From the NCBI GenBank assembly GCA_009779135.1, contig WREW01000002.1, forward strand, positions 78,953 to 142,952: a stretch of 64,000 nt of DNA, read 5' to 3'. Below the pieces are notes generated by a model, which worked only from the letters and a program-made list of their open reading frames with translations, made no database searches and was not told the DNA's origin. Position numbers and translations under genes: made by a program. Positions 17,365 through 63,739 of this stretch are shown here, piece after piece. Source of the DNA: Alphaproteobacteria bacterium. GTDB taxonomy: Bacteria > Pseudomonadota > Alphaproteobacteria > UBA9219. Position 1 is the first letter of the stretch. Each line of letters starts with the position of its first letter.

Positions 17365-17402
17365 GGTTTTAGGTTAGACACATGACACAGGAAGGGAATC
17401 TT

Positions 17403-22560: not shown

Positions 22561-23247
22561 TCATCCGTTTTTAGGCGTTTTGGGTTTGTCTTTTTTGCTC
22601 TGATCTTTTTCTCGTTTTGGCGTTGATGATGTTTCTTCTTTCAAATTGCTTGCGCTTAGTTCTTGCCATACCGTTTTCAAAGTCTTTTTCCATGGGTCAC
22701 GAAAATTATAAGCCGTACATGTTGCAAAGGTACCCCCAGCCGCAATAAAAGGAAGTTCCTTATTTGCAGGGAACATCTTCACACATAAGCTAAAAACCGC
22801 TGTAGCAGGAAGCATGCAGTAATGCCAGAGTTTGAAAAGAGAAAACTTTTTCTTTTTCTCTTCTTGCTCAAGCTTTTCTATGTCTTGTGTCAACATATTT
22901 CCTAAAGTTTGAAAACCAACTGTCAGGGCTTTAAGGCTTACTTTATGTTCTGGAAGCTTTCTATATAAAACAGAATAATGCCAAGCAGGATTCTTCAAAA
23001 GCCGATTCCAATTTTTATATAGTTGAAAGTTGCGTTGTATTTCTCTGAAAGAGTCATCACGAAGTGTTTTTGCTTCATCGGCTGTATGGGTTTTTTGAAG
23101 AAAATTGTGAATCTCTTCTTTTGCCTTCCACAGGGAATGCTCTTTCTTCTTCAGCACAAGGGGGATTGCTTTATCATGAAGCCGCATAAGCTTTTTATGA
23201 TAAGCAAGACGCTGTTTGAAATGGCGAAAGGGTAAGGTGGTATTCAT
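22561..23247 (-). CDS. hypothetical basic membrane protein (paralog of the partial ORF at 63785..64000)
   Basis: 228 aa; AT-rich; Lys-rich; C-terminal TM segment; tail ...KTPKNG. Confidence 0.5.
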   Translation of the reverse strand: MNTTLPFRHFKQRLAYHKKLMRLHDKAIPLVLKKKEHSLWKAKEEIHNFLQKTHTADEAKTLRDDSFREIQRNFQLYKNWNRLLKNPAWHYSVLYRKLPEHKVSLKALTVGFQTLGNMLTQDIEKLEQEEKKKKFSLFKLWHYCMLPATAVFSLCVKMFPANKELPFIAAGGTFATCTAYNFRDPWKKTLKTVWQELSASNLKEETSSTPKREKDQSKKDKPKTPKNG

Positions 23248-24912: not shown

Positions 24913-24919
24913 CGTCAGA

Positions 24920-25690
24920 TTATTCCAAAAAGGTCTGCGCCATTTGCGTGATGTCAAGGGACGCCTGCGCACTGGGAAAACGTGTTAAAAGCGAGGTTTG
25001 CGCGCGGATTGTTTCGCGTACATAGCGGTCTCTGTGGATAATGCCGCCCAGTTTCGGCGTGTAACCGAGAAAGGTTTCGCAGACTTTTTTCAAAGTCTCG
25101 TAAGTTTTGGAGCCTTCCATCAGAGACGTTGCCATATTCACCACAATGCGTAAATCCGCTTTGGGATTGCCGGCCAGCATCAGTTTGATAAAAGCATAAG
25201 AGTCCGTTAGCGCCGTCGGTTCATCCGTCACAACGACAAAGGTTGCTTTGGCCGCACCGGCCATCTGGCGCGTGGCTTTTTCAACGCCTGCGCCGAGATC
25301 GACAAACACATAATCATAACGCGGCGCGATCCCAAGCAGGCTGCTGCGCATATTCACAAGCTTGTCCGTCGGAAGACTCGCAAGATTACCCGAGCCTGAG
25401 CGTCCGGCGACAATGTCAAAAGCGCCTTTGGCGTAGGGGACAATGATTTCCTCAATTTTAAGATTGCCTTCTGTAAAATGCGCAAGATCTTTTTCAGGCG
25501 TCAGCCCAAGTTGAATATCCACATTGGCAAGACCGAAATCGCCGTCAAACAGAAGAACTCTTTTACCAAGCTGCGCCAGAGCATGGCAAAAGGTGATCGA
25601 AAACCACGTTTTTCCAACGCCGCCTTTGCCCGAAGCCACAGCGTAGAGGTTCTGGCTCTGCAAAGCGGGGGGGGCAACGGGATCGATCAT
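24920..25690 (-). CDS. fleN: flagellar number regulator, MinD-like ATPase FleN/FlhG
   Basis: deviant Walker A AVASGKGGVGKTW; ParA/MinD fold; located after flhF. Confidence 0.8.
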   Translation of the reverse strand: MIDPVAPPALQSQNLYAVASGKGGVGKTWFSITFCHALAQLGKRVLLFDGDFGLANVDIQLGLTPEKDLAHFTEGNLKIEEIIVPYAKGAFDIVAGRSGSGNLASLPTDKLVNMRSSLLGIAPRYDYVFVDLGAGVEKATRQMAGAAKATFVVVTDEPTALTDSYAFIKLMLAGNPKADLRIVVNMATSLMEGSKTYETLKKVCETFLGYTPKLGGIIHRDRYVRETIRAQTSLLTRFPSAQASLDITQMAQTFLE

Positions 25691-36608: not shown

Positions 36609-36684
36609 GGGCCTGTAGCTCAGCTGGGAGAGCGCATCGTTCGCAATGATGAGGTCGTCGGTTCGATCCCGATCAGGTCCACCA
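36609..36684 (+). tRNA. tRNA-Ala (anticodon CGC)
   Basis: cloverleaf folds by eye; G3:U70 alanine identity pair; anticodon loop TTCGCAA; encoded 3' CCA. Confidence 0.85.
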
Positions 36685-36796: not shown

Positions 36797-38395
36797 ATGA
36801 TCGATGATCTCGTCCGCGAGCTGTTTGCCGGAGATTCCAAGTATTTAGAGCTGGAAAGCTTGTATGTGAAATATCTTGATTCCAGCGACTCAGGCAGTAA
36901 AGAACATGACTCTCTGATTGAAAGCATGATCGTTGAGCATCTTAAAGTTGGGGTACCTCCCTCTGAAATCTTCGGAAAGCTTATGACGATTTTGTTTCAC
37001 AAAGCGCTCACGACATCGCGCTTTCAAAAGAAGAATATGGAGCCGCAGTTAAGCGCCATCGTAAAACCCTTTTTGACCGATTTCCCGAGGCTGGAACATC
37101 TCTATGCTTTACGTCACAGCACCAACATCACGCTCAGATTCAACAGTGGTGAGTCGCTGTACAGGGTGATCTCCGACAAGAATTATGCGTCTTCTGAGTT
37201 CAGGAGTCTGCGCATTCTGGCAAACACGGCCAAGGAAATCAATGATACGACTGAACCTCTGATCGCGTTGTTCCTGTCTTCGAAAGACATTAAAAACCGA
37301 GGCAATGCCATGGCCTCAGCCGTGCATGAGCTGGATGCTTCGGTGAAGGAAATTACCAACAATATTGAAGGCGTCAACCACAACACCGATCAGGCAGTTG
37401 CCAGTATGGAAAAGGGGATTCAGGCTTCAAACCGCGCGATCTCGGCGATCACCAAGATCTCTGAAACAACACAGGATGTGTCGGGCCGTATTGAAAGCCT
37501 GTCCAAGGCGTCCGAGAAAATCGGTGAGATTTTGCAGACGATCGACGGCATTTCCAAACAGACCAATCTTCTTGCCCTTAACGCCACGATCGAGGCGGCG
37601 CGGGCGGGCGAAGCCGGTAAAGGCTTTGTGGTGGTGGCCAATGAAGTCAAGCTGCTGGCGGGGCAGACCTCCAAGGCGACTGATGATATCAAGCAGCGGG
37701 TGACCAATCTTAAAGAGGAAATGTCCAGCATCACAGCCGCGATTGCCGGCAGCAGCGAGGCGGTTGTGGAAGGCGAGACCGTTATCAAGGAATCCTCGGC
37801 GCAGATGAGCAGCGTGTCCACCCAGATTGAAAACATCCACACCAAGATGCAGGAAGCCTTGACCGTGCTGACCCAGCAAAGTCAGGCGACCTCCGAGATA
37901 TCAACATCCATTACCAGCATTTCGGAAAGCTTGACTCATAATGACACTCTGGTTTCCGATATTGTTAAGGCCATCAACACCGCAAACGAGGACATCGTCA
38001 AGAGCACCGGTTCAATCACCAACCGCAAGACTCCTGAGTTCATGGGCGAGCTTACCCGTCTTGACCATATGCTGTTTAGAAAACGGGTCACCGACACCCT
38101 TATGGGCTTCGCTGACAATCATGACCATGATCTTCCGGATCACCATAGCTGTCGTCTCGGACAATGGTATGACGGCGTGACCGACACCGACCTTAAAAAC
38201 GCGGATGCATTCAAGAGTCTGTATTCGCCGCATGAAAAGGTTCATACGCTGGCTAAAGAGGCCTTGCGTCTGCATCAAAGCAAGCAAAGCACAGATACCG
38301 TCCTGCAGAAACTTCATGAACTGACGGTCGAATACAACAAGGTTCTCACGGACTTGTCGCGCATGTCGGATTACCTTATCGCAAAGGATAAATAA
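36797..38395 (+). CDS. cytoplasmic methyl-accepting chemotaxis protein with C-terminal CZB (zinc-binding) domain
   Basis: no TM; MCP signalling domain ([31 protein letters not shown]); C-terminal H-x3-C-x-GQW ... H motif of chemoreceptor zinc-binding domains. Confidence 0.8.
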
Positions 38396-39523: not shown

Positions 39524-41176
39524 TCAAAAAAGCAGCGCTTTGGTGCGGCAGGTTTTGAATAGGTCGAGGGTTGGGTTATAGACTTTTGTTTTGATCTCAA
39601 ACAAGCTTACGATGGAATGAAAGAGGTTATCGTGCGTATAGGCGTGTTTTTCGGCTTCTTGCTTTAAACAATCTTCATCAATATGGTCGTTTTCTTTCAT
39701 AGTGTCAGACATCCATAAAATCATGGGGATTTTTATTTGCTCCTGCGGCGCGATTTTGTAGGGGAGGCCGTGAAGATAGATATTATTTTCGCCCAACGAC
39801 TCGCCATGATCCGAAACATAGAGCAAACCGGTTTCATAATCGGGGTGCTTCTTTAAAATATCTATGATCGAAGAAAGAACAAAGTCCGTGTATAAAATCG
39901 TATTGTCATAGGTGTTGATGATGGCGTTGCGCGTACAGTTCTGCAAATTACCCGTATCGCAGGTCGGCTGAAAAACCTTAAAGCGGTCAGGATAGCGATT
40001 GTAATAGGTCGGGCCGTGACTTCCCATCATGTGAAGGACAATAAGCGTGTCGGTTTTAATGTTGTTTAAAATATCTTCAAGCCTGTCAAGCAGCGCTTCG
40101 TCATGGCAATAGGAGCCTTTGCAATATCTCGGGTCATTCACTTTGACCATGTCTTCCGTATAAACCCGCGCGCATACGCCTTTACAGCCATCGTCATTTT
40201 CAAGCCATATAATGTCATTGCCCGCTGTCTTGAGAATATCCAGAAGGTTTTCGGTATAACGCGCATCATCAACATCAAAATCTTTACGCGGTTTATGCGA
40301 AAAAATGCACGGCACGGAAATAGCCGTCGTTGTGCCGCACGCGCTGACATCACGGAAACGGATAATATCCTGCTGCGCAAGCAACGGGTTTGTATCTCTT
40401 TTATAACCATATAATGAAAAATTATGCGGCCTTGCCGCTTCGCCCAAAGCAAGAACCAGCACGGTTTTATGCTGGTCTTCAAAAGAAACCACAACAGCGG
40501 TTTGATCTATGGTTTCAAAAGTTTTTGGAACCTGCGTTTTGGCGCGGATATAACGTGTCGTAGCATGAATATAATTGGCCGTGTTGATAAGCGCGCGCGC
40601 GTGTTTGTGATGTCTTCCGAAGGCGGCGTATTCCTTATAGAAGACTCCGGCCAGCGCGCCGAAAACAACCAGGCTTATCACAATAAGAACAAAGCGCTTT
40701 TTCAGCTCCTTTCCGAAAGACTGGTAGGTGATGTCCGCCAAAACCACGAGCAGGGCAGGGATCACGCCCGTTAAACCAAACCAGAATAAAAAAGACCATG
40801 TAATGAGATCCAGAGCTTCCCTTCGATTGGTTTCAAAAACATTGCGCACCATATCGGGATCGATAAAAATACCATAATGCACCATCCAATAATTGGCTGC
40901 GCTTGAAATCAGCAACAAAATGACGGTCAAAGTTTTGGCGAAAAAAGGAACAACGACAAGATTAAAAAAGACATATAAAGGGATCAAAATAAAAAACACC
41001 AAAGACACGGCAAACAAGGCTGTCTGCGTGTTGGTTACAGCAAGATTTTCATGGATATAACGCCAAAAAGCCAGATTCAAACAAAAGCCAAAATAAAAGG
41101 TCATCAGTATGATAAACAGATGACTTTTTATAGCGGGTTTTTTCATAAGAACCTTGTGATGAGGATGGTGCCCCAT
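39524..41176 (-). CDS. eptA: phosphoethanolamine transferase (EptA family)
   Basis: 5 N-terminal TM helices plus periplasmic sulfatase-like domain (HMMGSHGPTYYNRYP; DHGE). Confidence 0.8.
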   Translation of the reverse strand: MGHHPHHKVLMKKPAIKSHLFIILMTFYFGFCLNLAFWRYIHENLAVTNTQTALFAVSLVFFILIPLYVFFNLVVVPFFAKTLTVILLLISSAANYWMVHYGIFIDPDMVRNVFETNRREALDLITWSFLFWFGLTGVIPALLVVLADITYQSFGKELKKRFVLIVISLVVFGALAGVFYKEYAAFGRHHKHARALINTANYIHATTRYIRAKTQVPKTFETIDQTAVVVSFEDQHKTVLVLALGEAARPHNFSLYGYKRDTNPLLAQQDIIRFRDVSACGTTTAISVPCIFSHKPRKDFDVDDARYTENLLDILKTAGNDIIWLENDDGCKGVCARVYTEDMVKVNDPRYCKGSYCHDEALLDRLEDILNNIKTDTLIVLHMMGSHGPTYYNRYPDRFKVFQPTCDTGNLQNCTRNAIINTYDNTILYTDFVLSSIIDILKKHPDYETGLLYVSDHGESLGENNIYLHGLPYKIAPQEQIKIPMILWMSDTMKENDHIDEDCLKQEAEKHAYTHDNLFHSIVSLFEIKTKVYNPTLDLFKTCRTKALLF

Positions 41177-41511
41177 ACAAGGGCGACATTGAGAAAGGAT
41201 ATTAAAACCAGTAGGCTGCCTATATCCTTCGCTTTCTTTGAAAGATCGTGATAGTCCGGCGAGATTCTGTCAATGATCGCTTCAATCGCCGTGTTGACCA
41301 GCTCCATCAACAAAACAAGAAACAGCGCGGCGATCATCAAAAGCTTTTCCACGATACTCAAAGGAAGCAGCAGTGCAACAACAAAAAGGACGAGACAGAA
41401 TAAAAGATCTTGGCGAAATGCCGCTTCGCTTTGAAAGGCCTGTTTAAACCCGCTTGCGGAATAAACAAAAGCTTTAAGAATCCTGCCGACGCCTTTATGA
41501 GGGGATTTCAT
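41143..41511 (-). CDS. dgkA: diacylglycerol kinase
   Basis: ~123 aa 3-TM protein with the prokaryotic DgkA signature (ASGFKQAFQSEAAFRQ ... VNTAIEAIIDRI); the upstream in-frame extension in the ORF track overlaps the next gene and is unlikely to be real. Confidence 0.75.
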   Translation of the reverse strand: MKSPHKGVGRILKAFVYSASGFKQAFQSEAAFRQDLLFCLVLFVVALLLPLSIVEKLLMIAALFLVLLMELVNTAIEAIIDRISPDYHDLSKKAKDIGSLLVLISFLNVALVWGTILITRFL

Positions 41512-42214
41512 CGTCTTTCTTATCCTCAAGCAGTTCGTCAAAAGATACGTCCGGTTGCTCTTCACCCTTGGAAAAATTGATGATGGTAGCGCTTGCTGTT
41601 GTCGCGGGCTCATCAAAGTTTCCGAAAAGCGCGGCGCTGTCCGGCTTGGGTTGCGCGTCTTGCGCTTTTTGCGCGGCTTTTTCTTCACGCGCGATGCGGC
41701 GGCGGGCTCTTTGCAGCGCGGCATCAAGATCAGCCTGTTTGACAAGGCCCAGAAGGACAGGATTACGCGGCTTTAAATTGTTCATATTCCAGTGCGTCTT
41801 GTCTTTGACCTTCTTGATCGTGTCTTTTGTCGTGCCTAAAAGACGCGCAACCTGCGCATCCAAAAGCTCGGGATGGGTTTTGAGCAGATAGAGAATCGCA
41901 TCCGGCTTGTCGGCGCGCTTGGAGACAGGCGTATAACGCGGCCCCTTTGTCCGCGCGTCCGGCTGAGGAAGGGACGAGCGCTGCATTTTAAGATGCCCGC
42001 GCGGCTCTTCTTCGCAACGCTTGATTTCTTCAGCCGTCAGCTGGCCGTTCATCACAGGATCCAGACCCATGATGCCGGAGGCCACTTCGCCGTCCGCTAT
42101 GGCCTGAACTTCCAGTTTATGAAGACCGCAAAAAGCGCCGATCTGCTCAAACGTCAGCGTTGTGTTTTCAACAAGCCAGACCGCTGTGGCTTTGGGCATT
42201 AAGGGAAGCGGCAT
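41495..42214 (-). CDS. DUF1013-family protein (alphaproteobacterial conserved)
   Basis: N-terminus MPLPLMPKATAVWLVENTTLTFEQIGAFCGLH matches the family I recall as DUF1013; basic/acidic C-terminal tail. Confidence 0.55.
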   Translation of the reverse strand: MPLPLMPKATAVWLVENTTLTFEQIGAFCGLHKLEVQAIADGEVASGIMGLDPVMNGQLTAEEIKRCEEEPRGHLKMQRSSLPQPDARTKGPRYTPVSKRADKPDAILYLLKTHPELLDAQVARLLGTTKDTIKKVKDKTHWNMNNLKPRNPVLLGLVKQADLDAALQRARRRIAREEKAAQKAQDAQPKPDSAALFGNFDEPATTASATIINFSKGEEQPDVSFDELLEDKKDDEIPS

Positions 42215-46460: not shown

Positions 46461-46561
46461 TGTCATTGCGAGGAAGGCCGCCGCAGGCGGATTGACGCGG
46501 CAATCTCTTCAACATCGCCGAGATTGCCGCGTCAGGCCTAAAGGTCTTCCTCGCAATGACA
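46461..46561. repeat. family-1 palindromic repeat, copy 4
   Basis: followed by a family-3 hairpin agctctccccctcgcgggggagggctttg at 46572..46600. Confidence 0.75.
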
Positions 46562-48292: not shown

Positions 48293-50992
48293 ATGTCCAC
48301 ACAAACAAAATGGGTTTATTCGTTCGGAGACGGCCATGCTGAAGGGCGCGCGGATATGCGCAATCTGCTGGGCGGCAAAGGGGCCGGTCTTGCGGAAATG
48401 TGTATGCTGGGGCTGCCTGTTCCCTCGGGCTTTACTATCACAACGGACGTCTGCACCTATTTCTACGCGCATGACCGCCTTTATCCCGAAAGCTTGAAGG
48501 GTGAAGTAAATAACGCTCTTGCGGAGGTGGAAAAAGCGGTCGGCTGCGGCTTTGGCGATCCGGCCAATCCTTTGCTGCTTTCGGTGCGCTCCGGCGCGCG
48601 GGCGTCCATGCCCGGGATGATGGATACCATCCTTAATCTCGGCCTGAATAACGCGACCGTGGAAGGTCTTGCCAAAATCAGTCAGGATGCGCGTTTTGCT
48701 TATGACAGCTATCGCCGCTTTATTCAAATGTACAGCGCGGTGGTGCTTGATATTTCTCTGCACAAGTTCGAAGACATTATCGAAGACGTCAAGCGCGCGC
48801 GCGGGTTTGCGCTTGATACCGAGATGACGGCTCATGACTGGCGCGAGGTTGTCACGGCCTATCTTCAGATCGTGCAAAAAGAACGCGGCAAAGCCTTCCC
48901 GCAGGATGTTCATGAGCAGCTCTGGGGCGCCATCGGCGCGGTGTTTGGTTCTTGGATGAACCAGCGCGCGATTACTTACCGCCGCTTGAATGATATTCCT
49001 GCGGACTGGGGCACGGCTGTTAATGTTCAGGCGATGGTGTTCGGCAATAAGGGCGAGGATTGCTGCACGGGCGTTGCCTTTACGCGCAACCCTTCCACGG
49101 GTGAGAACTCTTTTTACGGCGAATATCTTGTCAATGCTCAAGGTGAAGATGTTGTTGCCGGTATTCGCACGCCCCAGCATCTGACGATCAAGGGCAAAGA
49201 GGAAAATGACTCGGATCTTCTGGCCATGGAAGAGGTGATGCCGGATGTCTTTAAACAGCTTAATGATGTGCGCTTGAAACTGGAGTCACATTACCGCGAC
49301 ATGCAGGATATTGAGTTCACCGTCCAGCACGGCAAGCTTTATATGCTGCAAACCCGCACCGGAAAACGCACGGCGATGGCGGCTTTGCGGATTGCGGTTG
49401 AAATGGTGAAAGAAGGCACAATCGGCAAGGAAGAGGCTATTAAGCGTATCGAGCCTTCTTCATTGGATCAGCTTTTGCACCCGACACTTGATCCCAAAGC
49501 TGAGCGGCAGGTGATTGCCAAGGGTCTGCCTGCTTCCCCGGGCGCGGCTTCAGGCATTGTTGTCTTTACGGCTGACGAGGCCGAGGATATGGCGGGCAAA
49601 GGCAGAAAAGTTATTCTCTGCCGCGTTGAAACAAGCCCCGAAGATATTCACGGCATGCATGCCGCGCAGGGTATCGTGACAAGTCGCGGCGGTATGACAA
49701 GTCATGCTGCTGTTGTGGCGCGCGGCATGGGGCGCGCCTGTGTCGCGGGCGCGGGCGAGCTTTCCATGGACTATGCCAAGGGCGAGATGCGCGTGAAGGA
49801 CATCATTGTTAAAGCGGGCGAGGCCATCACGATTGACGGCGCGACGGGCGAGATCATGCTGGGCGAAGTTCCTTCGGTACAGCCCGAGCTTTCCGGCGAT
49901 TTTGCGACTTTGATGCAGTGGGCCGACAGCGTGCGCACATTGAAAGTCCGCACCAATGCCGAAACGCCTTTGGATGCGCGCACAGCCGTCAAGTTCGGCG
50001 CCGAGGGCATCGGCCTTTGCCGCACGGAACACATGTTTTTTGATACAAGTCGCATCATTGCGATGCGCGAGATGATTTTGGCGGAAAACACGCAAGGGCG
50101 GCGCAAGGCTTTGGACAAGCTTTTGCCGATGCAACAAAAGGATTTTGAGGATCTCTTCACCATTATGGACGGGCTTCCTGTGACGATCCGCCTTCTGGAC
50201 CCGCCTTTGCATGAGTTCCTGCCCAAAACAAAAGCGGAAATCGAAGATGTCGCCAAATATGCCGGTGTCGATGTGGCGCAGGTTGAACGGCGCGCGGCGA
50301 TGCTGCATGAAACCAATCCCATGCTGGGGCATCGCGGATGTAGGCTCGGCATTTCTTATCCCGAGATTTCCGAGATGCAGGCGCACGCTATTTTCGGTGC
50401 CGTGATTGCCATGAAGAAACAGGGGAAAACTGTGCTTCCTGAAGTGATGATTCCTCTTGTCGCGCTGAAAAAGGAATTGGATATTCTGGCAAAAGTCGTC
50501 CACGATGCGGCGGATGCAATGATGAAGGAGTCCGGCATAAAGTTTGACTATATGGTCGGCACGATGATCGAGCTGCCGCGCGCGGCGCTGCGCGCCGGCG
50601 GGATTGCGCAGACGGCGGAGTTCTTCAGCTTCGGCACAAATGATCTGACTCAAACGACTTTCGGTTTAAGCCGCGATGACAGCGCGTCTTTCCTTCCTGA
50701 TTATTATAGAACGGGGATTATGGCGCTGGATCCGTTTGTCACCATCGACCAAGACGGCGTGGGCGAGCTTATCAAAATCGCCTCCGAACGGGGCCGCGCG
50801 ACACGCGAGGATCTCAAGCTCGGCATATGCGGCGAGCATGGCGGCGATCCGGCCTCTATCCGCTTTTGCCACAAGCTTGGTTTGAATTATGTGTCATGCT
50901 CGCCTTACCGCGTTCCTATTGCGCGTCTGGCGGCAGCGCAGGCCGCGATCGAAAATGACCGCGACGTTCAGGCGCGGCTTAACGCGGCGTAA
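48293..50992 (+). CDS. ppdK: pyruvate, phosphate dikinase
   Basis: KWVYSFGDG N-terminus; phosphohistidine domain (GGMTSHAAVVARGMG); PEP-utilising C-terminal domain. Confidence 0.9.
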   Translation: MSTQTKWVYSFGDGHAEGRADMRNLLGGKGAGLAEMCMLGLPVPSGFTITTDVCTYFYAHDRLYPESLKGEVNNALAEVEKAVGCGFGDPANPLLLSVRSGARASMPGMMDTILNLGLNNATVEGLAKISQDARFAYDSYRRFIQMYSAVVLDISLHKFEDIIEDVKRARGFALDTEMTAHDWREVVTAYLQIVQKERGKAFPQDVHEQLWGAIGAVFGSWMNQRAITYRRLNDIPADWGTAVNVQAMVFGNKGEDCCTGVAFTRNPSTGENSFYGEYLVNAQGEDVVAGIRTPQHLTIKGKEENDSDLLAMEEVMPDVFKQLNDVRLKLESHYRDMQDIEFTVQHGKLYMLQTRTGKRTAMAALRIAVEMVKEGTIGKEEAIKRIEPSSLDQLLHPTLDPKAERQVIAKGLPASPGAASGIVVFTADEAEDMAGKGRKVILCRVETSPEDIHGMHAAQGIVTSRGGMTSHAAVVARGMGRACVAGAGELSMDYAKGEMRVKDIIVKAGEAITIDGATGEIMLGEVPSVQPELSGDFATLMQWADSVRTLKVRTNAETPLDARTAVKFGAEGIGLCRTEHMFFDTSRIIAMREMILAENTQGRRKALDKLLPMQQKDFEDLFTIMDGLPVTIRLLDPPLHEFLPKTKAEIEDVAKYAGVDVAQVERRAAMLHETNPMLGHRGCRLGISYPEISEMQAHAIFGAVIAMKKQGKTVLPEVMIPLVALKKELDILAKVVHDAADAMMKESGIKFDYMVGTMIELPRAALRAGGIAQTAEFFSFGTNDLTQTTFGLSRDDSASFLPDYYRTGIMALDPFVTIDQDGVGELIKIASERGRATREDLKLGICGEHGGDPASIRFCHKLGLNYVSCSPYRVPIARLAAAQAAIENDRDVQARLNAA

Positions 50993-51985
50993 AGGCGGTT
51001 CGATAAAAATCGGGGTCTTTTATTCTTGTCTTGATTTGCTCTGGCGTCAGGCTATGTTTAAGTGCTATGGCGGTGGCCAAGCGACGGCAATCTTGATCTG
51101 AAAGGTTATTTAGGCCGCCTTTTTGAAGTTTTTTCAATATCGCTATCCCGTTGAAGATAGGGTTGTCGGCATGGATGATGGTGTTTACGTCATCGTAATT
51201 TTCCTGAAGCTTATAAAGCGTTCGCGCAACATGGGGCCAATTTTGACGTTTAATATGGGATAGAAGACTATTTGCCTCTTTCATGCTTTCATAAGTGTCG
51301 TGTTCGACAATGAATCTGCGGGGTACGCCATCATTCAGATCCGTTAAGAACGCAAGGACGTCTTCTACCAGCCTATCCGTGTTTTTGCCTAACTTCGCCA
51401 CTTTAATCATGGCATAAACATCGGCTATGTTTTCATTGAGATGTTTGCCGGCTTTTTCATTTTGATCTGTGTAGAAAAACTCATGAAACAACATATGGGG
51501 GGAGGTAGAATCGAGCAAGACAATAACATTGCTTTGATCAGCGGAAGCGTTGGGCATTTTCAATATAAGCGGGGTTTTAAAAATGCGGATAGGAAACTCG
51601 TTTCCGATTGAAGCTTGAAAAGCGCTTAAGCCCATGGACTTTGCTAGAAGTATCATGGACGCAAGTGTAGAAATCTTGTTGCGTGACATGGAAAGTTGTG
51701 CATCTTCCAAAATCCCACAAAGAAGAAAATGCTGGTCACCTGAAAGATTTGGCATTTTGCTGCCGTCAATAATGATGATCTTTTGTCTAGACGCTTTTCT
51801 ATCTCGGGTATATTCCGAAAGACTTCATTGACAGCCTTGTGCCAGTCGGATGTCGGGTTTTTCTCAGGGGACAGCGTGACATCATGAAAAGGCAGCCCCC
51901 TTCCCATAAGCGAAGGCAACCCAAATGTTACCGCCGCAGCCGCAATAACCGACCAATTTATTATCTTTTTAACGGAAGCTTTCAT
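50979..51985 (-). pseudogene. family-X paralog A, frameshifted and motif-degenerate
   Basis: signal-peptide exon (51985..~51770) and body (51755..50979) lie in different frames; 1-nt loss inside an A5 run; the HExxH equivalent is HEFFY. Confidence 0.6.
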
Positions 51986-52066
51986 GCCCGCATTGTACTT
52001 TTTTCTGCGAAGATTTCATTAGTTTTAATAGTTTCATTGTGAGTATGGTTATTTTTCCCTCTCTCT
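51986..52066 (-). promoter_or_regulatory. conserved family-X promoter module (copy for paralog A)
   Basis: GAAAAATAACCATA...GAAACTATTAAAA(C/G)TAATGAAA...; -10-like TACAAT. Confidence 0.5.
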
Positions 52067-52170
52067 TGTCATTGCGAGGAGGGCCGCCGCAGGCGGATTG
52101 ACGCGGCAATCTCGGCAACATCAAGAGCGCGATTGCCGCGTCAGGCCTTATGGCCTTCCTCGCAATGACA
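52067..52170. repeat. family-1 palindromic repeat, copy 5
   Basis: directly upstream of the paralog A promoter module. Confidence 0.75.
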
Positions 52171-52187
52171 AGTGGGGGGGGGCCGCG

Positions 52188-53507
52188 TTATTCCGGTGTG
52201 AGCTTGGGGATGGGGACTGTGACTGTGCTCTTGCTGGGCCTTTGTGCTTCTTCTTCTTTTATGCTTTCATTGGCGCGTATAGCCGGTTTAAATGCGGGAT
52301 TATTCGCTTCCGGATCGTCCTTATACCAATAGTAAGTCTTATTCCATGAATCTCTGGCATCCCCTTTTGGCACGTCGTCGCCAAGCGCGGCGTCTTTTAA
52401 ATCTTTGATCTGTTCCGGCGTCAGACTATGTGTGCTTGCTATAAGACCGGCTATGCGATGGCACGTTTTATCCGGAAGTTTTTCAAAACCGTTGTCTTTG
52501 AGTTCTTTCAATATCGCTTGCTTTTCCTGATCGTCGAAGGTAGGCTTATCGGCCTCGATTATGTTATAGCCCTTCTTGTTATTGTATTCTTCTTGAAGTC
52601 CAGAAAGGATTTTATCAACCCTGTCCCATTTTTTATGTTTAGCTTGTATACAAAAATCTTTCGTTACCGACAGGCTTTTATAGGCGTTGTAAGCTATAAA
52701 GTTGTCAGCCTTATCGGCAGCATTCGGATCGCTGTAGAGCTTGTTTCTAAAATTGTAAGTTGAACGCAGGATTCCATCTTCTGCTACTCCTAAGGTACTT
52801 ACGCCTAATTGCTCCATTTTAATCATGGCGTAAGATTCTGCCATATTTTCCTTGTGATTTGTTCGGAGGGACTGGAGCATTGCAGGCGTATTTTTATCGA
52901 TGTCGCCTGTAGGAGCATAAAAAACATTTAAGAAAGGATTGATCGTCTTATCCTGTCCGTCTATTTGTGTTGGAACCGACTGGGTTAAATGGCCAACCTC
53001 GTGAAACAGCGTCTGAATATTTTTCTTATCTACGACAACAACGCTGGTTCGATCTGAAAAGGGATTATCCTCAACCGAAGTTCCTAAAAAAGGTGTGGAA
53101 CGATAGTTTCCAATTGAAGTGCAAAAACCGCCCAAGTTTTTTTCTTCGACTTCAAGCAACGCGGCTGAAAGGCGGTTAATCTTGCCTTCCGCTATGGGAG
53201 CATTTGAGTTTTTTAGAACCTTGCTAAATCCATCATGTGACGGTTTTTCACCCTTCAAAGCTTCTTTTATTTTGCCATAGTCAAGAAAGACAACTTCTTG
53301 CCCTATCATCTTTTCCGTTTCGCCTTTATTCCGAAAGACTTCATTGACAGCTCTGCTCCATTCGGGGTTTTTATCAGGGAAGATCAGGATATCGTGAAGG
53401 GGGGCTTTTTCTGCAAGGGAAGGCGTTGCCAACAGCGTTGCCGAGGCCACCGCAAGGGCTGCCGATTTGATGCTTTTGGTTGCCATAGGTTTATCGTCGT
53501 TTTCCAT
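52188..53507 (-). CDS. family-X secreted HExxH protein, paralog B
   Basis: signal peptide; FHEVGHL; ENMAESYAMIKMEQLG; C-terminal ...STVTVPIPKLTPE; begins 8 bp after the paralog C stop. Confidence 0.7.
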   Translation of the reverse strand: MENDDKPMATKSIKSAALAVASATLLATPSLAEKAPLHDILIFPDKNPEWSRAVNEVFRNKGETEKMIGQEVVFLDYGKIKEALKGEKPSHDGFSKVLKNSNAPIAEGKINRLSAALLEVEEKNLGGFCTSIGNYRSTPFLGTSVEDNPFSDRTSVVVVDKKNIQTLFHEVGHLTQSVPTQIDGQDKTINPFLNVFYAPTGDIDKNTPAMLQSLRTNHKENMAESYAMIKMEQLGVSTLGVAEDGILRSTYNFRNKLYSDPNAADKADNFIAYNAYKSLSVTKDFCIQAKHKKWDRVDKILSGLQEEYNNKKGYNIIEADKPTFDDQEKQAILKELKDNGFEKLPDKTCHRIAGLIASTHSLTPEQIKDLKDAALGDDVPKGDARDSWNKTYYWYKDDPEANNPAFKPAIRANESIKEEEAQRPSKSTVTVPIPKLTPE

Positions 53508-53515
53508 GGCCTAGG

Positions 53516-55063
53516 CTATTGCGGTGTGAGTTTGGGGGTGGGAGCCGTGACTGTGCTCCTGCCGGCGGGTCTTTGCGGTTCGTCAAAGCTCGCCACCTTC
53601 AAAGGCTCCGCCGCCACGCCCAAAGGCTCCGCCGCTTTTTTTGCCGGTTCAAAAGCGGTGTTGTTGTCTTTATCCGCTACAGCGGCTTCTTGCGCTTCTT
53701 TTTTTATGCTTTCATGGGCAAGTATGGCCGGTTTAAATGCGGTGTTATTGTCTTTATCCACCACAGCGTCTCCTTGTTTAAGAAGGTCGTACGTGTCACT
53801 CCATGCTTTGGTGGCGGCCTTTCCTTGCGGCACCTTTCCCAAGGTTGCGTTGTCAAAATCGTTCATATCAGACAAAGACGGGCTATGCTTTGTTGCCAAA
53901 GCTGACGCAAGAGAAAGGCTGTCTTTGTCTGTAAGAGCATTCAGTCCACCTGTTTCTAACTTGGCAAAAATAGCTTGTCCATTGAAGGGATGTTTAACCT
54001 CGGATCGTGATTCCGTGTTGTCATAAGTTTCTTGAAGACCATCAAGCTTTGACTTAACATTATCCATTTTCCCGTTCTTAATATCGTCCAGAAGAGAGAT
54101 TGTCGCAAACAGAGTTTCATGGGTGTTATGCCCTTGGTACGACATCGGGAGTTCTTGACTCGTTGAGAGGTAAGTTGAGTCAAAAAGACGGGCTTGCGCT
54201 TGTTTAGTGGCAGCTGTGTAATTTCCTTTTTGCGCCATTTTAATCGCGGCGTAAGAATCTGACATATTTTCCTGGCGATTTTCCCGCAGCTTCCAAGCTT
54301 CACCTTTATTATCTGTTTTAGGGACTTTCATGAAAAACGCGGGTTCCTCTACTTCAGTATTGTAAAGATGCGCTTTTTCGTGAAATGCTGTAAAAGCGGC
54401 CGCTTCATCATATGGCTGTTTTACAAAATTAGAATCTGTTTTTGAAAAATCAACGCCTGTACCTTCGGGACAAGACAACCTCTCACGCCAAACAGTATTT
54501 CCGTCTTTGTTATTTTCACCGAACGCGACAAAAACTTTTATGTTGTTACCATCTCTGTCTTTTGTTGAAATAACACCAGAGTTGACCTGATCGAAAGAAG
54601 GGTCACATACTGGTTCGTATCCTATATCCTGTCTTAAATGTCTTCCTATACTAGCCGCGAGTATGGCACTCTCTCCCTTTTCCGCAGAAACGCCTGAATC
54701 CTCCAGAATGCCCTTTACGGCAGAGTCGTCGTTTTCCCTTTCACTTAAAATCTTTAAAATCTCATCTACGTCATGTTTTCCTGATTCCCCTTTGCCATGC
54801 GCCAGCGCGGCAGATCTTTTTTTCACTTCTCGCCCATCAATAAAATAAATCTTTTGTCCTATCGCCTGTTCTATTTCTTCTTTTTGAGAAACAATTTCTT
54901 TTTTAGCCTCATCCACCAAGGATATGGGCTTTACTGCGACAGGATTGTCGGGAATCTTTGCTGCTCCGGCAGGCAGCGGTAATAAGCTACATGCCGCTAC
55001 GGCTGTAGCGGCTGTCAGGTTTACTACCCTTTTGAGCAGGGGTTTTTTATCGTCGTTTTCCAT
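53516..55063 (-). CDS. family-X secreted HExxH protein, paralog C
   Basis: signal peptide; FHEKAHL; ENMSDSYAAIKMAQ; C-terminal ...STVTAPTPKLTPQ. Confidence 0.7.
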   Translation of the reverse strand: MENDDKKPLLKRVVNLTAATAVAACSLLPLPAGAAKIPDNPVAVKPISLVDEAKKEIVSQKEEIEQAIGQKIYFIDGREVKKRSAALAHGKGESGKHDVDEILKILSERENDDSAVKGILEDSGVSAEKGESAILAASIGRHLRQDIGYEPVCDPSFDQVNSGVISTKDRDGNNIKVFVAFGENNKDGNTVWRERLSCPEGTGVDFSKTDSNFVKQPYDEAAAFTAFHEKAHLYNTEVEEPAFFMKVPKTDNKGEAWKLRENRQENMSDSYAAIKMAQKGNYTAATKQAQARLFDSTYLSTSQELPMSYQGHNTHETLFATISLLDDIKNGKMDNVKSKLDGLQETYDNTESRSEVKHPFNGQAIFAKLETGGLNALTDKDSLSLASALATKHSPSLSDMNDFDNATLGKVPQGKAATKAWSDTYDLLKQGDAVVDKDNNTAFKPAILAHESIKKEAQEAAVADKDNNTAFEPAKKAAEPLGVAAEPLKVASFDEPQRPAGRSTVTAPTPKLTPQ

Positions 55064-55150
55064 GACCTTATTATACTATTTTTTTGTGAATCTTTTATTA
55101 CTTTTAATAGTTTCGCTTTAAATATGGTTATTTTTCATTAACTTATGTGA
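55064..55150 (-). promoter_or_regulatory. conserved family-X promoter module (copy for the C-B operon)
   Basis: TTAATGAAAAATAACCATATTTAAAGCGAAACTATTAAAAGTAATAAAAGATTCAC...AGTATAATAAGGTC then ATG. Confidence 0.55.
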
Positions 55151-55155
55151 TTTTC

Positions 55156-55293
55156 CTTGTCATTCTCGGGGCTTGCGGATGACGAGAGGGGAGATTGTCA
55201 TTGCGAGGAAGGCCTTCAGGCCTGACGCGGTAATCTCTGCAACATCGCCGAGATGGCGCCCGTTGGGCCTTGCGGCCCGCCTCGCAATGACAG
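55156..55293. repeat. composite repeat: family-2 fragment plus family-1 copy 6
   Basis: gtcattctcggggcttgcggatgacgag followed by gtcattgcgagg ... cctcgcaatgacag. Confidence 0.7.
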
Positions 55294-55311
55294 TTAGGGG
55301 GGGCTTGGGGC

Positions 55312-56481
<1,170 letters not shown>

Positions 56482-56487
56482 TTACGG

Positions 56488-59387
<2,900 letters not shown>

Positions 59388-59486
59388 TTAAGCATCTTCT
59401 TTCGCTTTAAAAACTTGCCGAAAACAAAAGGTTAAAGAGTTTAGCGCATGGCCGCAAGCCAGTCCAAAGGAAAGAGGGGTCGTCCT

Positions 59487-59569
59487 ATAAGTTAATGAAA
59501 AATAACCACGTTTAGAGTGAAATTATTAAAAGTAATAAAAGATTTATCAAAAAGAGGTATAATAGGGCC
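59487..59569 (+). promoter_or_regulatory. conserved family-X promoter module (copy for paralog D)
   Basis: TTAATGAAAAATAACCACGTTTAGAGTGAAATTATTAAAAGTAATAAAAGATTTATC...GGTATAATAGGGCC then GTG. Confidence 0.55.
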
Positions 59570-60859
59570 GTGAAAGACGACGTTAAAAAATCCTCGCCGC
59601 TCGTTAGATTTACGGCGGCTACGATGGCTGCGCTCACGGTTGGGCTTTTGCCTGCTGATGCAAAAGGCGGGTATGATATTATGTACTCCCCTGACCCGAA
59701 ATCTGAAGCGGGGAAAGTTGTAAAGCAGCTCGCTCCGCATATGGCTGCGGTGGAGGAAGTGACAGGACAAGAGTTTCTTCCTATTATCGACGGCAGCAAA
59801 ATCGATAACATCTTTAACCAAAAGCAAATGCCTTTCAATCTATCTAATCTCCGCGATGTTTTAGAAAACGCGGACTTCCCTACACCCTTAACGCCCAACA
59901 AAATAGGAAATATTGCATTCCATATACTTCAGGCAAAGGCGCTTGAGTATAGAGCTTTGCATGTTTCAGTCGGGAAATCGCACTTGGTTGTCTTATTTGA
60001 TCCTTCTGATCCCAAAATACTGGGTCACGAGATCGTAGGACATGGGAATCAAGAATATGCAAAGGACGGTAACTTACACTCTTCTGTTTTAAAAGTCCCT
60101 GATGTTTCGAAACCCCAGATTTCTTTAAAAGCTTTTGACAAGATCTCGGATCCTGACCAGCTTTTCCTTTTAACAAACTACCGCGAAAATATGGCGGATG
60201 TTGCCGACATGCTTACAAGGGCGCAAAGGGGCGAAGGGATAAAAGGCATGGCGGCTGAAAATCTTTTGCAATCTACGATCCTTTTTAGAAAAGTGCTTTA
60301 TAACAATCCGCAGGCTTTGGATTACCAAGTCACAGAACATAATACTTACAGAAGTCTGGCGGCGACAGAAACTTTTCTGTCCCATGTTAAAGAGAAAGAC
60401 TGGCCAAAGGTTGCGCGAGCTCTTTATACAATCCAAGAAAAATACAACGAGATGACGGCTTTGGATGTTTTGATTCCTGTTGATAATCCCATCTTCCCCG
60501 GGCGGGTGATTATGGACAAGCTCCAAGAAGAAGGCGACATAAAAAATCTTTCACCGCAAGAAACCGCTCATCTGGCTGCCGGTTTTGCGTGCATGTATAG
60601 TCTTAATCCGCAAGAGGGCAAGGATTTTAACGCCGCCGCGCTTGGCGATGAAGCACCCGTAGGAGCCGCCCGCGGCGCGTGGCTTCAGGTAGGCCGTATG
60701 CTGAACAATCCGGTATTAAAGAATGATCCTGAGATGCAGGAACTCCGGAATGATCCCGCCTATCAACAGGTCACGAGCGCGCGTGAAAGCATAGAACCGC
60801 CTGCCAGAAAACCGCGTGGCCATAAGGTTTCCTCTTCTTCCAAATATACGCCGCAATAA
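59570..60859 (+). CDS. family-X secreted HExxH-like protein, paralog D (GTG start)
   Basis: signal peptide; GHEIVGHG (HExxxH variant); ENMADVADM; C-terminal ...KYTPQ. Confidence 0.65.
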   Translation: MKDDVKKSSPLVRFTAATMAALTVGLLPADAKGGYDIMYSPDPKSEAGKVVKQLAPHMAAVEEVTGQEFLPIIDGSKIDNIFNQKQMPFNLSNLRDVLENADFPTPLTPNKIGNIAFHILQAKALEYRALHVSVGKSHLVVLFDPSDPKILGHEIVGHGNQEYAKDGNLHSSVLKVPDVSKPQISLKAFDKISDPDQLFLLTNYRENMADVADMLTRAQRGEGIKGMAAENLLQSTILFRKVLYNNPQALDYQVTEHNTYRSLAATETFLSHVKEKDWPKVARALYTIQEKYNEMTALDVLIPVDNPIFPGRVIMDKLQEEGDIKNLSPQETAHLAAGFACMYSLNPQEGKDFNAAALGDEAPVGAARGAWLQVGRMLNNPVLKNDPEMQELRNDPAYQQVTSARESIEPPARKPRGHKVSSSSKYTPQ

Positions 60860-60865
60860 ACAGAC

Positions 60866-61648
60866 TTAATCAATCAGGCCGTTCTTCCTAAGAAGATCGT
60901 AGCTGTCCTGATACCAGCGGCTGCCGGGGAAGTTGTGGCCCAAAACGGCGGCGGTTTTTTTGGCTTCATCCAAAATGCCCAGAGCGAGATAGGATTCAAC
61001 AAGCCGGTGCAAGGCTTCGGGAACGTGGCTGGTGGATTGGTAGCGCTCGACCACCGTGCGGAAACGGCCTACGGCTGCTGTGAAAAGTTTTTGTGTCATG
61101 TAATTGCGGCCGACTTCCATCTCGGCGCCGGCAAGGTGATCGTTGACGAGGTCAATTTTAAGTCTGGCATCACGCGCATAGGCCGTGTCAGGAAAACGAC
61201 GGATGATGGTCTGCAGCTCGGACAGCGCAAGATGCGCATAAGTCTGGTCACGCCGGACATCGGCGATGCGCTCATAATCGCTTAACGCCCGCAGATAGTA
61301 GGCATAGGCGATATATTCGCTCCCCGGGTGAAGGCGGATAAAGCTCTCCAGCGCTTTGATGGCCGCGTCATAATCGAGCGCCTCATACATGGCGTAAGCG
61401 CTCATCAACTGGCCGCGCGGGGCCCATTGCGAATATGGGTGCTGGCGCTCAATTTCCTCGAACTGCGTCGCAGCCTCCCGAAACAGGCGCTTTTCCATAA
61501 GGTTGAGGCCGTCATTGTAAAGAGCCTCGGCGGTTTTTTCGGACGGCTCCTCGGGCTTTTGGGAAGCGCATCCAACAAGAAGCCCCAAAGCCAGAAAAGC
61601 TACGGCCAAACGCGAAAAAGAGAAGGGTGGGAACATGCGCAGCATCAA
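60866..61648 (-). CDS. bamD: outer membrane protein assembly factor BamD
   Basis: lipoprotein signal (LLVGC); TPR-like YfiO/ComL domain. Confidence 0.8.
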   Translation of the reverse strand: MMLRMFPPFSFSRLAVAFLALGLLVGCASQKPEEPSEKTAEALYNDGLNLMEKRLFREAATQFEEIERQHPYSQWAPRGQLMSAYAMYEALDYDAAIKALESFIRLHPGSEYIAYAYYLRALSDYERIADVRRDQTYAHLALSELQTIIRRFPDTAYARDARLKIDLVNDHLAGAEMEVGRNYMTQKLFTAAVGRFRTVVERYQSTSHVPEALHRLVESYLALGILDEAKKTAAVLGHNFPGSRWYQDSYDLLRKNGLID

Positions 61649-61764
61649 CCTTTGAATCAGTTAGGTTCTTCTTTTACAACAGACCTTAGGCCGCTGCAAG
61701 ATTCTTGACTTTTTCGGTGTTTTTCCAGCATTATAAAAGGCATGTTTTCAAAGGGTAACCCTGT

Positions 61765-61998
61765 ATGCAGGTTCGTATTTTTCGCCCCGCCGCAAGCTTG
61801 ACGCAAGGCTCGCCTTGGGCCGATGCGTGGCGGCTTGAGGTTGTCAGCGCGATCCAGAAAAGGCCCGAGCCTTTCATGGGCTGGCTTGCGGCTGAGGACG
61901 GGCAAAGCACCATGAAAGGGCGCCTTGCTTTTGATACGCAGCAAGCGGCCATAGCCTTTGCGCAAAAGCAGGGCTGGTTGTTTGAGGTTGAGGAATAA
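61765..61998 (+). CDS. ETC complex I NDUFS4-like (AQDQ-family) small protein
   Basis: 77 aa; RIFRPAASLTQGS...WRLEV...PFMGW...RLAFDTQQAAIAFAQKQGW-FEV matches the bacterial NDUFS4-homolog pattern. Confidence 0.65.
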   Translation: MQVRIFRPAASLTQGSPWADAWRLEVVSAIQKRPEPFMGWLAAEDGQSTMKGRLAFDTQQAAIAFAQKQGWLFEVEE

Positions 61999-62005
61999 GG
62001 CCGGT

Positions 62006-63106
62006 TTATTGTAGCGTGTGGGCAGGGAAAGAAGTCGCAATTTTTGTACCTCTAACAGGTTCCTGCGATGCTTTCATGGTGCTTTCATAAGCGCGCACAG
62101 CCGGTTGAAATGCGGGATCATCCTTTGCCACATGGTCTTTCAGTAAATAATAAGTATGGCACCATTTTTTTTCGGCAGCGTCTTTTGGCGTTTCATCTCC
62201 AACTACAGCATCCATACAATCCTGTATATCTTTTTGCGTCTTGCCATTTCTGGCGGCCATAGCGGCAGCCAAAAGACAGCACTGTTTGTTGGTAAGCTTT
62301 TTTATGTCGCCGTCTTCAAGAACTTGCTCTATCTCCTGCCAGTTGACGGTGGAAATGTCGGACATAATAACGGTATTCTCGCGGTTCAAGGCATCGTAGC
62401 TTTCTTGAAGATCCAAAAAGATTGACCGGCTTACATTTTCATCCCTTCGGGATAAAAGGACGTTCATGCTCCCTATGCTTTCATGCGTGTCATGTTCTAT
62501 TCTGGACAATATTTCGTCCGGATTGTTTTTGTGCAAGGCTCTGGCAAAATAAGTTGCGGCCAGAAGATTTTGTTTTGCTATTCCCCGTGTATCGCCTTCG
62601 CATTGCGCCATTTTAATGACGGCCAAGCCATCGGACATATGTTCTTTATAATTTGTTTCTTTGGAAGCAATGAAATCTTGCGAGGTAGGATCATCTGCAG
62701 GAATCCGCAAGAAATGGTTGATGAGTTTGGCGCGTCCGTCCACTGATGTCCGAGTCAATATAACAGCGTGGCAAAGTTCGTGAAACATTGTAAAAGGATC
62801 TTTATCATTAATAACAACAAAGGTCGTCAGATCCTCTAACTTGCCAAGCGTGGCGCAAAAACCTGCCTCGTTCCTGTGTTTAAATATTCTGGCTTCAAGC
62901 GCATCAATTTTGTGCTGCGTCATATGAGGCAGTGAATCTTTCAGAACTCCGTGAGGATTATTTTGCAGTTTTGTGCCGTCAATGATGACAATCTCGCGCC
63001 CCAGCCATGTTTCCATCTCGCTCTTTAAAAGCAAGACTTCATTGATAGCCCTATCCGAAACGGATGTTGGGTTTTCTACAGTGGAGAATGTGATGTCATG
63101 TTTCAT
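62006..63106 (-). CDS. family-X HExxH protein, paralog E (no obvious signal peptide)
   Basis: FHELCHAVIL; EHMSDGLAVIKMAQ; C-terminal ...AHTLQ. Confidence 0.65.
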   Translation of the reverse strand: MKHDITFSTVENPTSVSDRAINEVLLLKSEMETWLGREIVIIDGTKLQNNPHGVLKDSLPHMTQHKIDALEARIFKHRNEAGFCATLGKLEDLTTFVVINDKDPFTMFHELCHAVILTRTSVDGRAKLINHFLRIPADDPTSQDFIASKETNYKEHMSDGLAVIKMAQCEGDTRGIAKQNLLAATYFARALHKNNPDEILSRIEHDTHESIGSMNVLLSRRDENVSRSIFLDLQESYDALNRENTVIMSDISTVNWQEIEQVLEDGDIKKLTNKQCCLLAAAMAARNGKTQKDIQDCMDAVVGDETPKDAAEKKWCHTYYLLKDHVAKDDPAFQPAVRAYESTMKASQEPVRGTKIATSFPAHTLQ

Positions 63107-63220
63107 AGCTCATTCCTTAGAATTATGGCCTTATTATACCTCATTTTCATGAATATTTCATTACTTTCAATAGTTTCTAGCCTGAATATGCTTATATTTC
63201 ATTGACTTACGATTCTTTTG
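63107..63220 (-). promoter_or_regulatory. conserved family-X promoter module (copy for paralog E)
   Basis: TCAATGAAATATAAGCATATTCAGGCTAGAAACTATTGAAAGTAATGAAATATTCATG...GGTATAATAAGGCC. Confidence 0.5.
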
Positions 63221-63342
63221 GGCTGGCTTGCGGTGGGGGGCGGGTAAAGCACTATGAGGGGACTCCTTGCTTTTGGTCTGCTCGCCGCCGCCATCAAGTT
63301 CGCGCAAAAATAGGGGTGGTTGTTTGAGGTTGGGGAATAAAG
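63221..63342 (+). pseudogene. degenerate duplicate of the NDUFS4-like gene 3' end (duplication footprint)
   Basis: ~80% identical to 61879..62000, including the stop context gttgtttgaggttg(a/g)ggaataa. Confidence 0.65.
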
Positions 63343-63454
63343 TTGGGTTATTTAGGTTTGGGATGGGCTATATATTGAAACTATTAATATGGTTAATCTC
63401 ATTGACATGTTTGGGGTAGAAAAGCAAAGTAGTTGGGGAAAGGAGGATTCCTTG

Positions 63455-63739
63455 ATGTCAAAATCATCAGAGATCTTAATCGATTTGTTTAAAACGGCTG
63501 CTAAAATTACGGGTACAATGGCTGTAATTATGAGCGTGCCGGCTTTATTCAATTATACGGGTGTAGAGGTGACAAAGCTTCCTTTTCCTGCTCAACTTGT
63601 TATATTTGGTGCCCATGTCGGCTTGTGTATGTGGGGAGTAAGTAATTTGCTAAAAATTGATTCAGATGTACAGCGCCGTTACAAGCAAAAGAAACCTGAA
63701 TCTTCAGGGGGGAAGTTTTCAGTATTGACTTTAAAATAA
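63455..63739 (+). CDS. small membrane protein (paralog of 22245..22559)
   Basis: ~94 aa, 2 TM; shared upstream module gggatgggytatatattgaaactattaatatggttaatctyattgacatgtt. Confidence 0.5.
   Translation: MSKSSEILIDLFKTAAKITGTMAVIMSVPALFNYTGVEVTKLPFPAQLVIFGAHVGLCMWGVSNLLKIDSDVQRRYKQKKPESSGGKFSVLTLK

Follow-up and report, generated by a model that had tools for sequence, protein, structure and literature searches.

The 64,000-nucleotide stretch of contig WREW01000002.1 analyzed here (positions 78,953 to 142,952 of the forward strand; referred to as the window) stems from a metagenome-assembled genome labeled "Alphaproteobacteria bacterium" (GenBank assembly GCA_009779135.1) and carries five paralogous genes, A to E, within 12 kb. 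We propose, with a probability of roughly 0.6, that these genes represent a previously undescribed, very rare, and lineage-restricted family of Glu-zincin metallopeptidases of the thermolysin/neprilysin type. In Glu-zincins, the HEXXH motif provides two His ligands of the zinc ion together with the catalytic Glu, and the third ligand is the Glu of an ExxxD motif located 20–60 residues further on (PMC3356374). The family studied here shows an HExxH box followed by an E-x-x-x-[DE] block, and structure models of two paralogs place both elements in helices of a fold that weakly resembles that of zincins.

Five paralogs with a Glu-zincin-like signature

The reading frames of all five genes are found at the coordinates given by the original prediction, and an all-against-all BLASTP comparison confirmed that they form one family whose members are homologous over most of their length (E-values of 1e-12 to 1e-49 at 26–34% identity). 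Searching the window with every copy using tblastn returned these five loci and no sixth.

Paralog B (52188–53507, minus strand) encodes 439 amino acids (aa) with a signal-peptide-like N-terminus, the motifs HEVGH (52989–53003) and ENMAE (52836–52850), and a large conserved helical C-terminal half (residues 240–420); an identical protein is listed in GenBank (MCL2469032.1, "hypothetical protein FWF24_02220"). Paralog C (53516–55063, minus strand, 515 aa) likewise begins with a signal-peptide-like segment and carries HEKAH (54368–54382) and ENMSD (54257–54271). It has extra inserts ahead of the catalytic helix and internal tandem duplications in its C-terminal tail, i.e., a 21-nucleotide (nt) unit present twice (53591–53632) and a 50-nt segment that recurs at a distance of 84 nt (53643–53776), through which the peptide "KDNNTAF.PA" is repeated. 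Paralog D (59570–60859, plus strand, 429 aa) uses a GTG start codon and also has a signal-peptide-like N-terminus, followed by HEIVGH (60026–60043) and ENMAD (60185–60199).

Paralog E (62006–63106, minus strand, 366 aa; HELCH at 62768–62782 and EHMSD at 62630–62644) has no signal peptide. An ATA codon occupies the ancestral start position and a new ATG, preceded by an AAGGA site resembling a Shine-Dalgarno sequence, lies ca. 20 nt downstream, with the protein starting exactly where the mature part of the other copies begins. E also contains seven cysteines compared to one to three in the other copies. Paralog A (50979–51985, minus strand) is split into two pieces and is probably a decaying pseudogene. 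It carries a 1-nt frameshift near 51787, where a base is missing in a Gly codon of the conserved "G-Q-K-I-I-I-I-D-G" stretch, and switching the frame at this point restores the "...EIEKRL-GQKIIIIDGSK..." sequence known from other copies. In addition, A has lost the second His of HExxH (HEFFY, 51471–51485), its Glu block (ENIAD, 51420–51434) follows just 13 residues on, and its C-terminal region is shortened.

Database searches described below added two distant relatives, P0006 and P0007, to the comparison of conserved residues. The first motif has the HExxH form in B, C, E, P0006, and P0007 and the wider HExxxH spacing in D. The second block follows with its Glu at a distance of 47 residues from the second His in B, 33 in C, 48 in D, and 42 in E. 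The two relatives carry HENGH...EAKAD (P0006) and HEFDH...ESCSD (P0007) with spacings of 27 and 28 residues, respectively. Outside pseudogene A, the spacing is thus 27–48 residues in six of seven members, which falls inside the range of 20–60 residues that defines Glu-zincins (PMC3356374). H169, E170, and E220 (B numbering) are invariant in all seven sequences. The E-x-x-x-[DE] block ends in Asp in six members and in Glu in B, and the complete pair of HExxH and ExxxD is kept in five of the seven.

The gluzincin-like signature that had been noticed in these genes is therefore in agreement with the Glu-zincin definition (PMC3356374). The HExxH boxes and the Glu block are present as they had been described, but the proposed distance of about 45 residues is only a rough value for copies ranging from 33 to 48 (and 13 in A), and the fifth position of the block is not limited to Asp. 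Further downstream, ca. 50 residues past the Glu, lies a conserved family-specific block of the form [HY]-[ND]-x-[YH]-E-[ST], followed at some distance by an invariant Tyr (Y308 of B). Of the C-terminal motifs that had been suggested as common to the family, LTPEQIK is exact in A and B only, and A to D share the TPx tail, whereas E ends in HTLQ.

Judging by these motifs, B, C, and E appear to be capable of catalysis. D may be active as well by analogy to peptidase family M49, in which a motif of the HExxGH type is functional. HEXXGH is the hallmark of M49, and characterized enzymes of that family carry either HEXXGH or HEXXH (PMC5805324), so that the altered motif does not necessarily make D inactive.

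Structure models and predicted export

We modeled B and E with AlphaFold2, using a 5-sequence alignment for B (mean predicted local distance difference test score [pLDDT] 71, predicted template modeling score [pTM] 0.74) and a 7-sequence alignment for E (mean pLDDT 74.6, pTM 0.79). Both models show the same topology with two short strands, the HExxH helix, a beta hairpin, a poorly predicted loop, a long helix bearing the Glu, and an all-helical C-terminal half. The HExxH motif lies in helix 164–174 of the B model and in helix 104–116 of the E model, the Glu is helical in both, and the HExxH and Glu regions of the E model have high local confidence. When the models were compared to 48,164 PDB chains, the matches of both were almost entirely Glu-zincins, though the fold match is weak; enzymes of family M13 occupied ranks 3–5 in the match list of B. 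The models thus suggest that the family resembles Glu-zincins at the level of the clan, i.e., in motif and approximate fold.

The N-termini of A to D and of both distant relatives have a charged start, a hydrophobic core of ca. 13 residues, and small-residue sites such as SLA|EK, AGA|AK, ADA|KG, or LFA|QS. A heuristic based on hydrophobicity and positions -3/-1 was positive for these six proteins and negative for E, in agreement with the signal peptides predicted earlier for four copies and the lack of an obvious one in the fifth. A hydrophobicity scan revealed no further membrane-spanning segment in the family members except for one in P0007. These features make export by the Sec pathway plausible for the two relatives and for A to D, and the latter four would then work in the periplasm or further out. 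E, with its signal segment lost, is probably cytoplasmic and would stay there unless it is exported in another way.

A family with very few relatives

Scans of all members against Pfam, NCBIfam, PADLOC, and PHROGs gave nothing above noise, and a profile search of PDB sequences with the family likewise returned only noise, in line with the earlier impression that no named family stands behind these genes. A search of PDB with a single sequence gave, apart from noise, a match to a transcription activator-like (TAL) effector repeat protein (E = 2e-5). We rejected it as an artefact because its score adds up at least 14 repeats that each match one "HSLTPEQ" stretch with just 0–2 bits. Residues 336–370 of B (52398–52502), "...CHRIAGLIASTHSLTPEQIKD", resemble the TAL-effector repeat junction "...LCQAHGLTPEQVVA".

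As the original prediction had suggested, we built a profile hidden Markov model from the five copies and searched it with HMMER against 1.84 billion representative proteins, accepting E-values up to 0.001. This search returned seven proteins, namely the five genes of the window and only two others: P0006 (484 aa, E = 4e-10) and P0007 (459 aa, E = 7e-4; on a 4.3-kb contig), which are only 17–20% identical to the copies in the window. P0006 is encoded by a single-copy gene between the genes for RNase E and HtpG on another alphaproteobacterial contig (L003, 10001–11455), and the near-identical P0010 (10001–11368 on both L085 and L086) is likewise a single copy between these two genes. The ENA analysis in which P0010 occurs, ERZ27257481, is numbered close to the ERZ27257295 of the window's contig, and the two organisms may therefore share a study or habitat.

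Word-indexed homolog searches with one protein and with a profile of seven sequences returned only the query itself and P0007, and a scan of a genome collection with B found no relative. In GenBank, the window's proteins are labeled only as "hypothetical protein" (locus tags FWF24_02220, _02225, and _02260). The PpdK protein encoded next to A is at most 74% identical to that of any species representative that we found, with Azospirillum and Niveispirillum as best matches, and none of 80 ppdK loci in other genomes contained a family member. Because the profile search, existing annotation, and the ppdK loci turned up so few relatives, we conclude that the family is an orphan confined to a few uncultured lineages.

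A shared upstream element

An AT-rich element of ca. 80–110 nt precedes each of four transcription units, i.e., A (51986–52060, minus strand; GAAACTATTAAAACTAATGAAA; with a TACAAT box just before the ATG), C-B (55064–55150, minus strand; GAAACTATTAAAAGTAATAAAA; with a TATAAT box ending 6 nt before the ATG), D (59484–59569, plus strand), and E (63107–63212, minus strand; with a promoter-like ATGAAA-17-TATAAT arrangement). B starts 8 nt past the stop codon of C and has no upstream element of its own, for which reason C and B probably form one operon. When up to one mismatch was allowed, the 22-nt core of the element, GAAACTATTAAAAGTAATRAAA, matched the window at these four sites and at no others, where none would be expected by chance.

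The element is 66–83% identical between copies, compared to 46–55% for the coding DNA. This better conservation of a non-coding sequence than of the genes behind it argues for a shared cis-regulatory function, and the four transcription units are probably co-regulated through it. A word resembling GT(T)AATGAAA appears twice in the element at a distance of ca. 42 nt, and a promoter scan found ATGAAA-16/17-TA[TC]AAT in the elements of A and E. Since the distance from the end of the TATAAT box to the conserved start codon is just 6 nt, the mRNAs of the family units may be leaderless.

Two other explanations for the element were considered and rejected. It does not look like an RNA element, given a consensus fold of ca. 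0 kcal/mol, no covariation, and no Rfam match at the upstream element. A binding site for CtrA, judged by eye, was discarded because the TTAA half-sites are not conserved in the elements of A and E.

Genomic setting and probable spread of the copies

At its end, each patch of paralogs meets the 3′ end of a housekeeping gene in tail-to-tail orientation. The end of A overlaps the stop region of ppdK by 14 nt, the stop codon of D lies 6 nt from that of the convergent bamD, and the stop codon of E lies 7 nt from that of an NDUFS4-like gene (61765–61998). The GC content at third codon positions (GC3) is 41–46% in the family genes compared to 56–65% in the neighboring housekeeping genes, and a GC content below that of the surrounding DNA was also seen for P0006 and P0007.

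The patches had been described as bracketed by repeats. Repeats are indeed present, though they are of three different sorts: the upstream element, a palindrome found throughout the window, and a duplicated 3′ end of NDUFS4. The palindromic element is ca. 85–125 nt long with inverted termini TGTCATTGCGAGG...CCTCGCAATGACA (13 terminus matches in the window compared to 1.9 expected). One copy lies between B and the upstream element of A (ca. 52057–52180) and another between the upstream element of C and ccrM (ca. 55195–55292). Because four of the six copies are located away from the paralogs (4131–4231, 6332–6427, 22017–22122, and 46461–46561), we regard it as a general intergenic repeat not specific to the paralogs; it looks like a genome repeat of the repetitive extragenic palindromic (REP) or miniature inverted-repeat transposable element (MITE) kind.

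The cassette containing E is flanked by a 134-nt direct repeat on the plus strand. Its left copy is the intact 3′ end of the NDUFS4-like gene (61877–62010), and its right copy (63219–63352) is 76% identical, contains stop codons, and reads "...GWLA...AFAQK.GWLFEV.E". This decayed copy and its intact counterpart apparently mark an old insertion that duplicated its target or a single-crossover/recombination event. A short piece of the NDUFS4 relic, CCGCAAGCCAG.CC, recurs ahead of D and, incompletely, ahead of C, which hints that these copies came from a locus already carrying the relic. Just past the relic beside E lies an open reading frame (ORF) of 116 aa (63389–63739).

Within the genome, the family would have spread by old duplications of single-gene cassettes that each bring along their own upstream control region of ca. 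80–110 nt. The original prediction had called the family expanding, which does not fit the divergence of the copies (the low coding identity given above, falling to 39–51% at third codon positions) nor the fact that two of the five are degenerate, with A frameshifted and without its second His and D altered in its motif. The copies are old.

Other features of the window

The expansion of Sel1-repeat proteins reported for this organism was confirmed with four genes at 10826–11905, 12005–13303, 15496–17364, and 17382–18305 that encode 8, 10, 12, and 5 repeats, respectively (Pfam E-values of 1e-57 to 1e-116). A gene for an OmpA-like porin is located at 9589–10674. The window also contains dnaA (2659–4122) and may therefore lie near the replication origin. 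Other features are RNase P RNA (9013–9395), one tRNA (36609–36681), a methyl-accepting chemoreceptor with a zinc-binding CZB domain (36797–38395), an EptA-type phosphoethanolamine transferase (39524–41176, GC content of 43.5%), and the cell-cycle regulator TrcR (41495–42214). Further ORFs without a Pfam match lie at 22561–23247, at 23344–24972, and at the site of the 116-aa ORF mentioned above; two of these three have a GC content of 38–39% compared to 51% for the window.

Proposed function and alternative explanations

If the five genes encode metallopeptidases as we propose, one zinc ion would be held by the two His residues of the helix that bears HExxH together with the Glu that the E-x-x-x-[DE] block contributes from a later helix. 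The Glu of HExxH would activate a water molecule for attack on the peptide bond, and the Asp or Glu located four residues past the ligand Glu would orient one of the ligand His residues. The [HY]-[ND]-x-[YH]-E-[ST] block and the invariant Tyr are candidate stabilizers of the transition state.

Several observations weigh against this proposal. A Foldseek comparison with PDB gave nothing with an E-value below 0.8, and the models themselves were built on thin alignments of 5–7 sequences that overlap between B and E. When the family profile was aligned with hhalign to neprilysin (residues 527–696) and thermolysin (residues 139–316), each target being 100% identical to a PDB chain, only HExxH aligned in either case, with probabilities of 0.6% and 0.4%, respectively. 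Among the copies, B has Glu in place of the Asp of ExxxD, and D and A depart from HExxH. The signal peptides, finally, were called from hydrophobicity and a heuristic for positions -3/-1, not by a trained predictor.

The silence of Foldseek and the failure of hhalign to align anything beyond the motif itself could mean that HExxH, ExxxD, and the zincin matches are coincidental and that the family is an unrelated alpha/beta protein of unknown function. We consider this very unlikely. A chance HExxH would hardly remain invariant in one column across 17–35% identity with a fixed Glu at the expected distance, and the models of two paralogs, even if their alignments overlap, both retrieve almost only Glu-zincins out of all PDB chains compared. 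It is easier to imagine, though still improbable in our view, that the fold is zincin-like without protease function and that the proteins are pseudo-enzymes or periplasmic proteins binding a metal or other ligand, with the motif kept for structure. The weak fold match, the departure of two of the five copies from HExxH, the ENMAE of B, and a helical C-terminal half (residues 240–420 of B) without any peptidase counterpart in the match lists would all suit this explanation. However, known zincins do not use the catalytic Glu of HExxH for structure, and this residue is nevertheless invariant in all seven sequences including the distant relatives, and the full HExxH and ExxxD pair persists in most of them.

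A further proposal, that of secreted metalloprotease effectors with which an intracellular or host-associated bacterium targets its host, would be a special case of the metallopeptidase family, and it is the host target that we regard as unlikely. The export signals are compatible with it, as are the lineage restriction and low GC3 of the genes (with the same trend in the distant relatives) and the presence of four Sel1-repeat genes in the same window. However, a Sec signal peptide by itself takes a protein no further than the periplasm, and no gene or signal for type II, III, IV, or VI secretion was seen in the neighborhoods of the family genes, to which this inspection was confined. The chemoreceptor encoded in the window and the best PpdK matches, at just 74% and to the free-living Azospirillum and Niveispirillum, do not favor a host-associated lifestyle either.

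The Glu-zincin family that we favor can be drawn out into a fuller picture, which we offer tentatively and which as a whole is rather doubtful. It would be an active zinc metallopeptidase lineage new at the family level (a candidate MEROPS family) in a few uncultured alphaproteobacteria. Its genes would move within a genome as promoter-carrying single-gene cassettes whose insertion sites are the 3′ ends of housekeeping genes, in tail-to-tail orientation and in one case still marked by the 134-nt duplication of the NDUFS4 3′ end, and they would answer to one shared operator/promoter with possibly leaderless mRNAs.

If active, the family would be a branch of the Glu-zincin proteases at family level that is missing from present libraries of sequence families, and it would be an example of a small orphan family multiplying inside one genome. 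With seven representatives among 1.84 billion proteins, it is a clean case of lineage-specific "dark" protein innovation, and the shared upstream element offers a direct experimental handle on its regulation. The combination of rarity, a five-copy cluster, and a conserved control element makes these genes a reasonable target for experiments. Unnamed HExxH proteins are common in metagenomes, and the wider impact would therefore be modest unless a specific substrate or host target emerges; no long-standing open question hinges on the family.

Comparison with known peptidases

The family is not a member of M13, M4, or M49, though it shares individual features with each of them. Family M13 (neprilysin/PepO, MEROPS clan MA(E)) combines HExxH with a downstream E-N-[IM]-[AS]-D block; its zinc-binding motif is GENIAD (PMC2259306), which is closely echoed by the ENM[AS]D seen here. 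However, none of the family members matches Pfam Peptidase_M13 or M13_N, and none contains the NAFY (NA[FY]Y) motif of M13. Chains of M13 are also longer (ca. 650–750 aa compared to 366–515 aa here), the distance from His to Glu is 59 residues in neprilysin compared to 27–48 here, and the helical C-terminal half of our family differs from M13.

Thermolysin and its relatives (M4) are defined by the same pair of HExxH and ExxxD (PMC3356374), and the members of both groups are exported, as far as predicted for the family described here. In contrast to M4 enzymes, our family has no match to Pfam Peptidase_M4 or M4_C and no recognizable M4 propeptide, and the spacing of 20 residues between His and Glu in thermolysin is shorter than the 27–48 residues observed here. 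Dipeptidyl-peptidase III and other M49 enzymes include both HEXXGH and HEXXH forms (PMC5805324), just as D (HEIVGH) stands beside B, C, and E. However, HEXXGH is found in D only, and none of the members contains EEXR(K)AE(D), the second motif of M49. The enzymes of M49 work in the cytosol as exopeptidases with two domains and more than 500 aa, and they show no sequence match to the family.

The L3 loop of the BlaR1/MecR1 proteins (M56) offers another parallel. BlaR1 is a sensor protein integral to the membrane that includes a penicillin-binding domain, whereas the proteins described here are soluble, mostly carry predicted signal peptides, and have no sensor domain. Nevertheless, the L3 loop was recognized as a Glu-zincin by its HEXXH motif and an EXXXD motif 37 residues further on, without any similarity to thermolysin-like proteases that BLAST could detect (PMC3356374), and the assignment that we propose for paralogs A to E follows the same kind of argument with a similar spacing.

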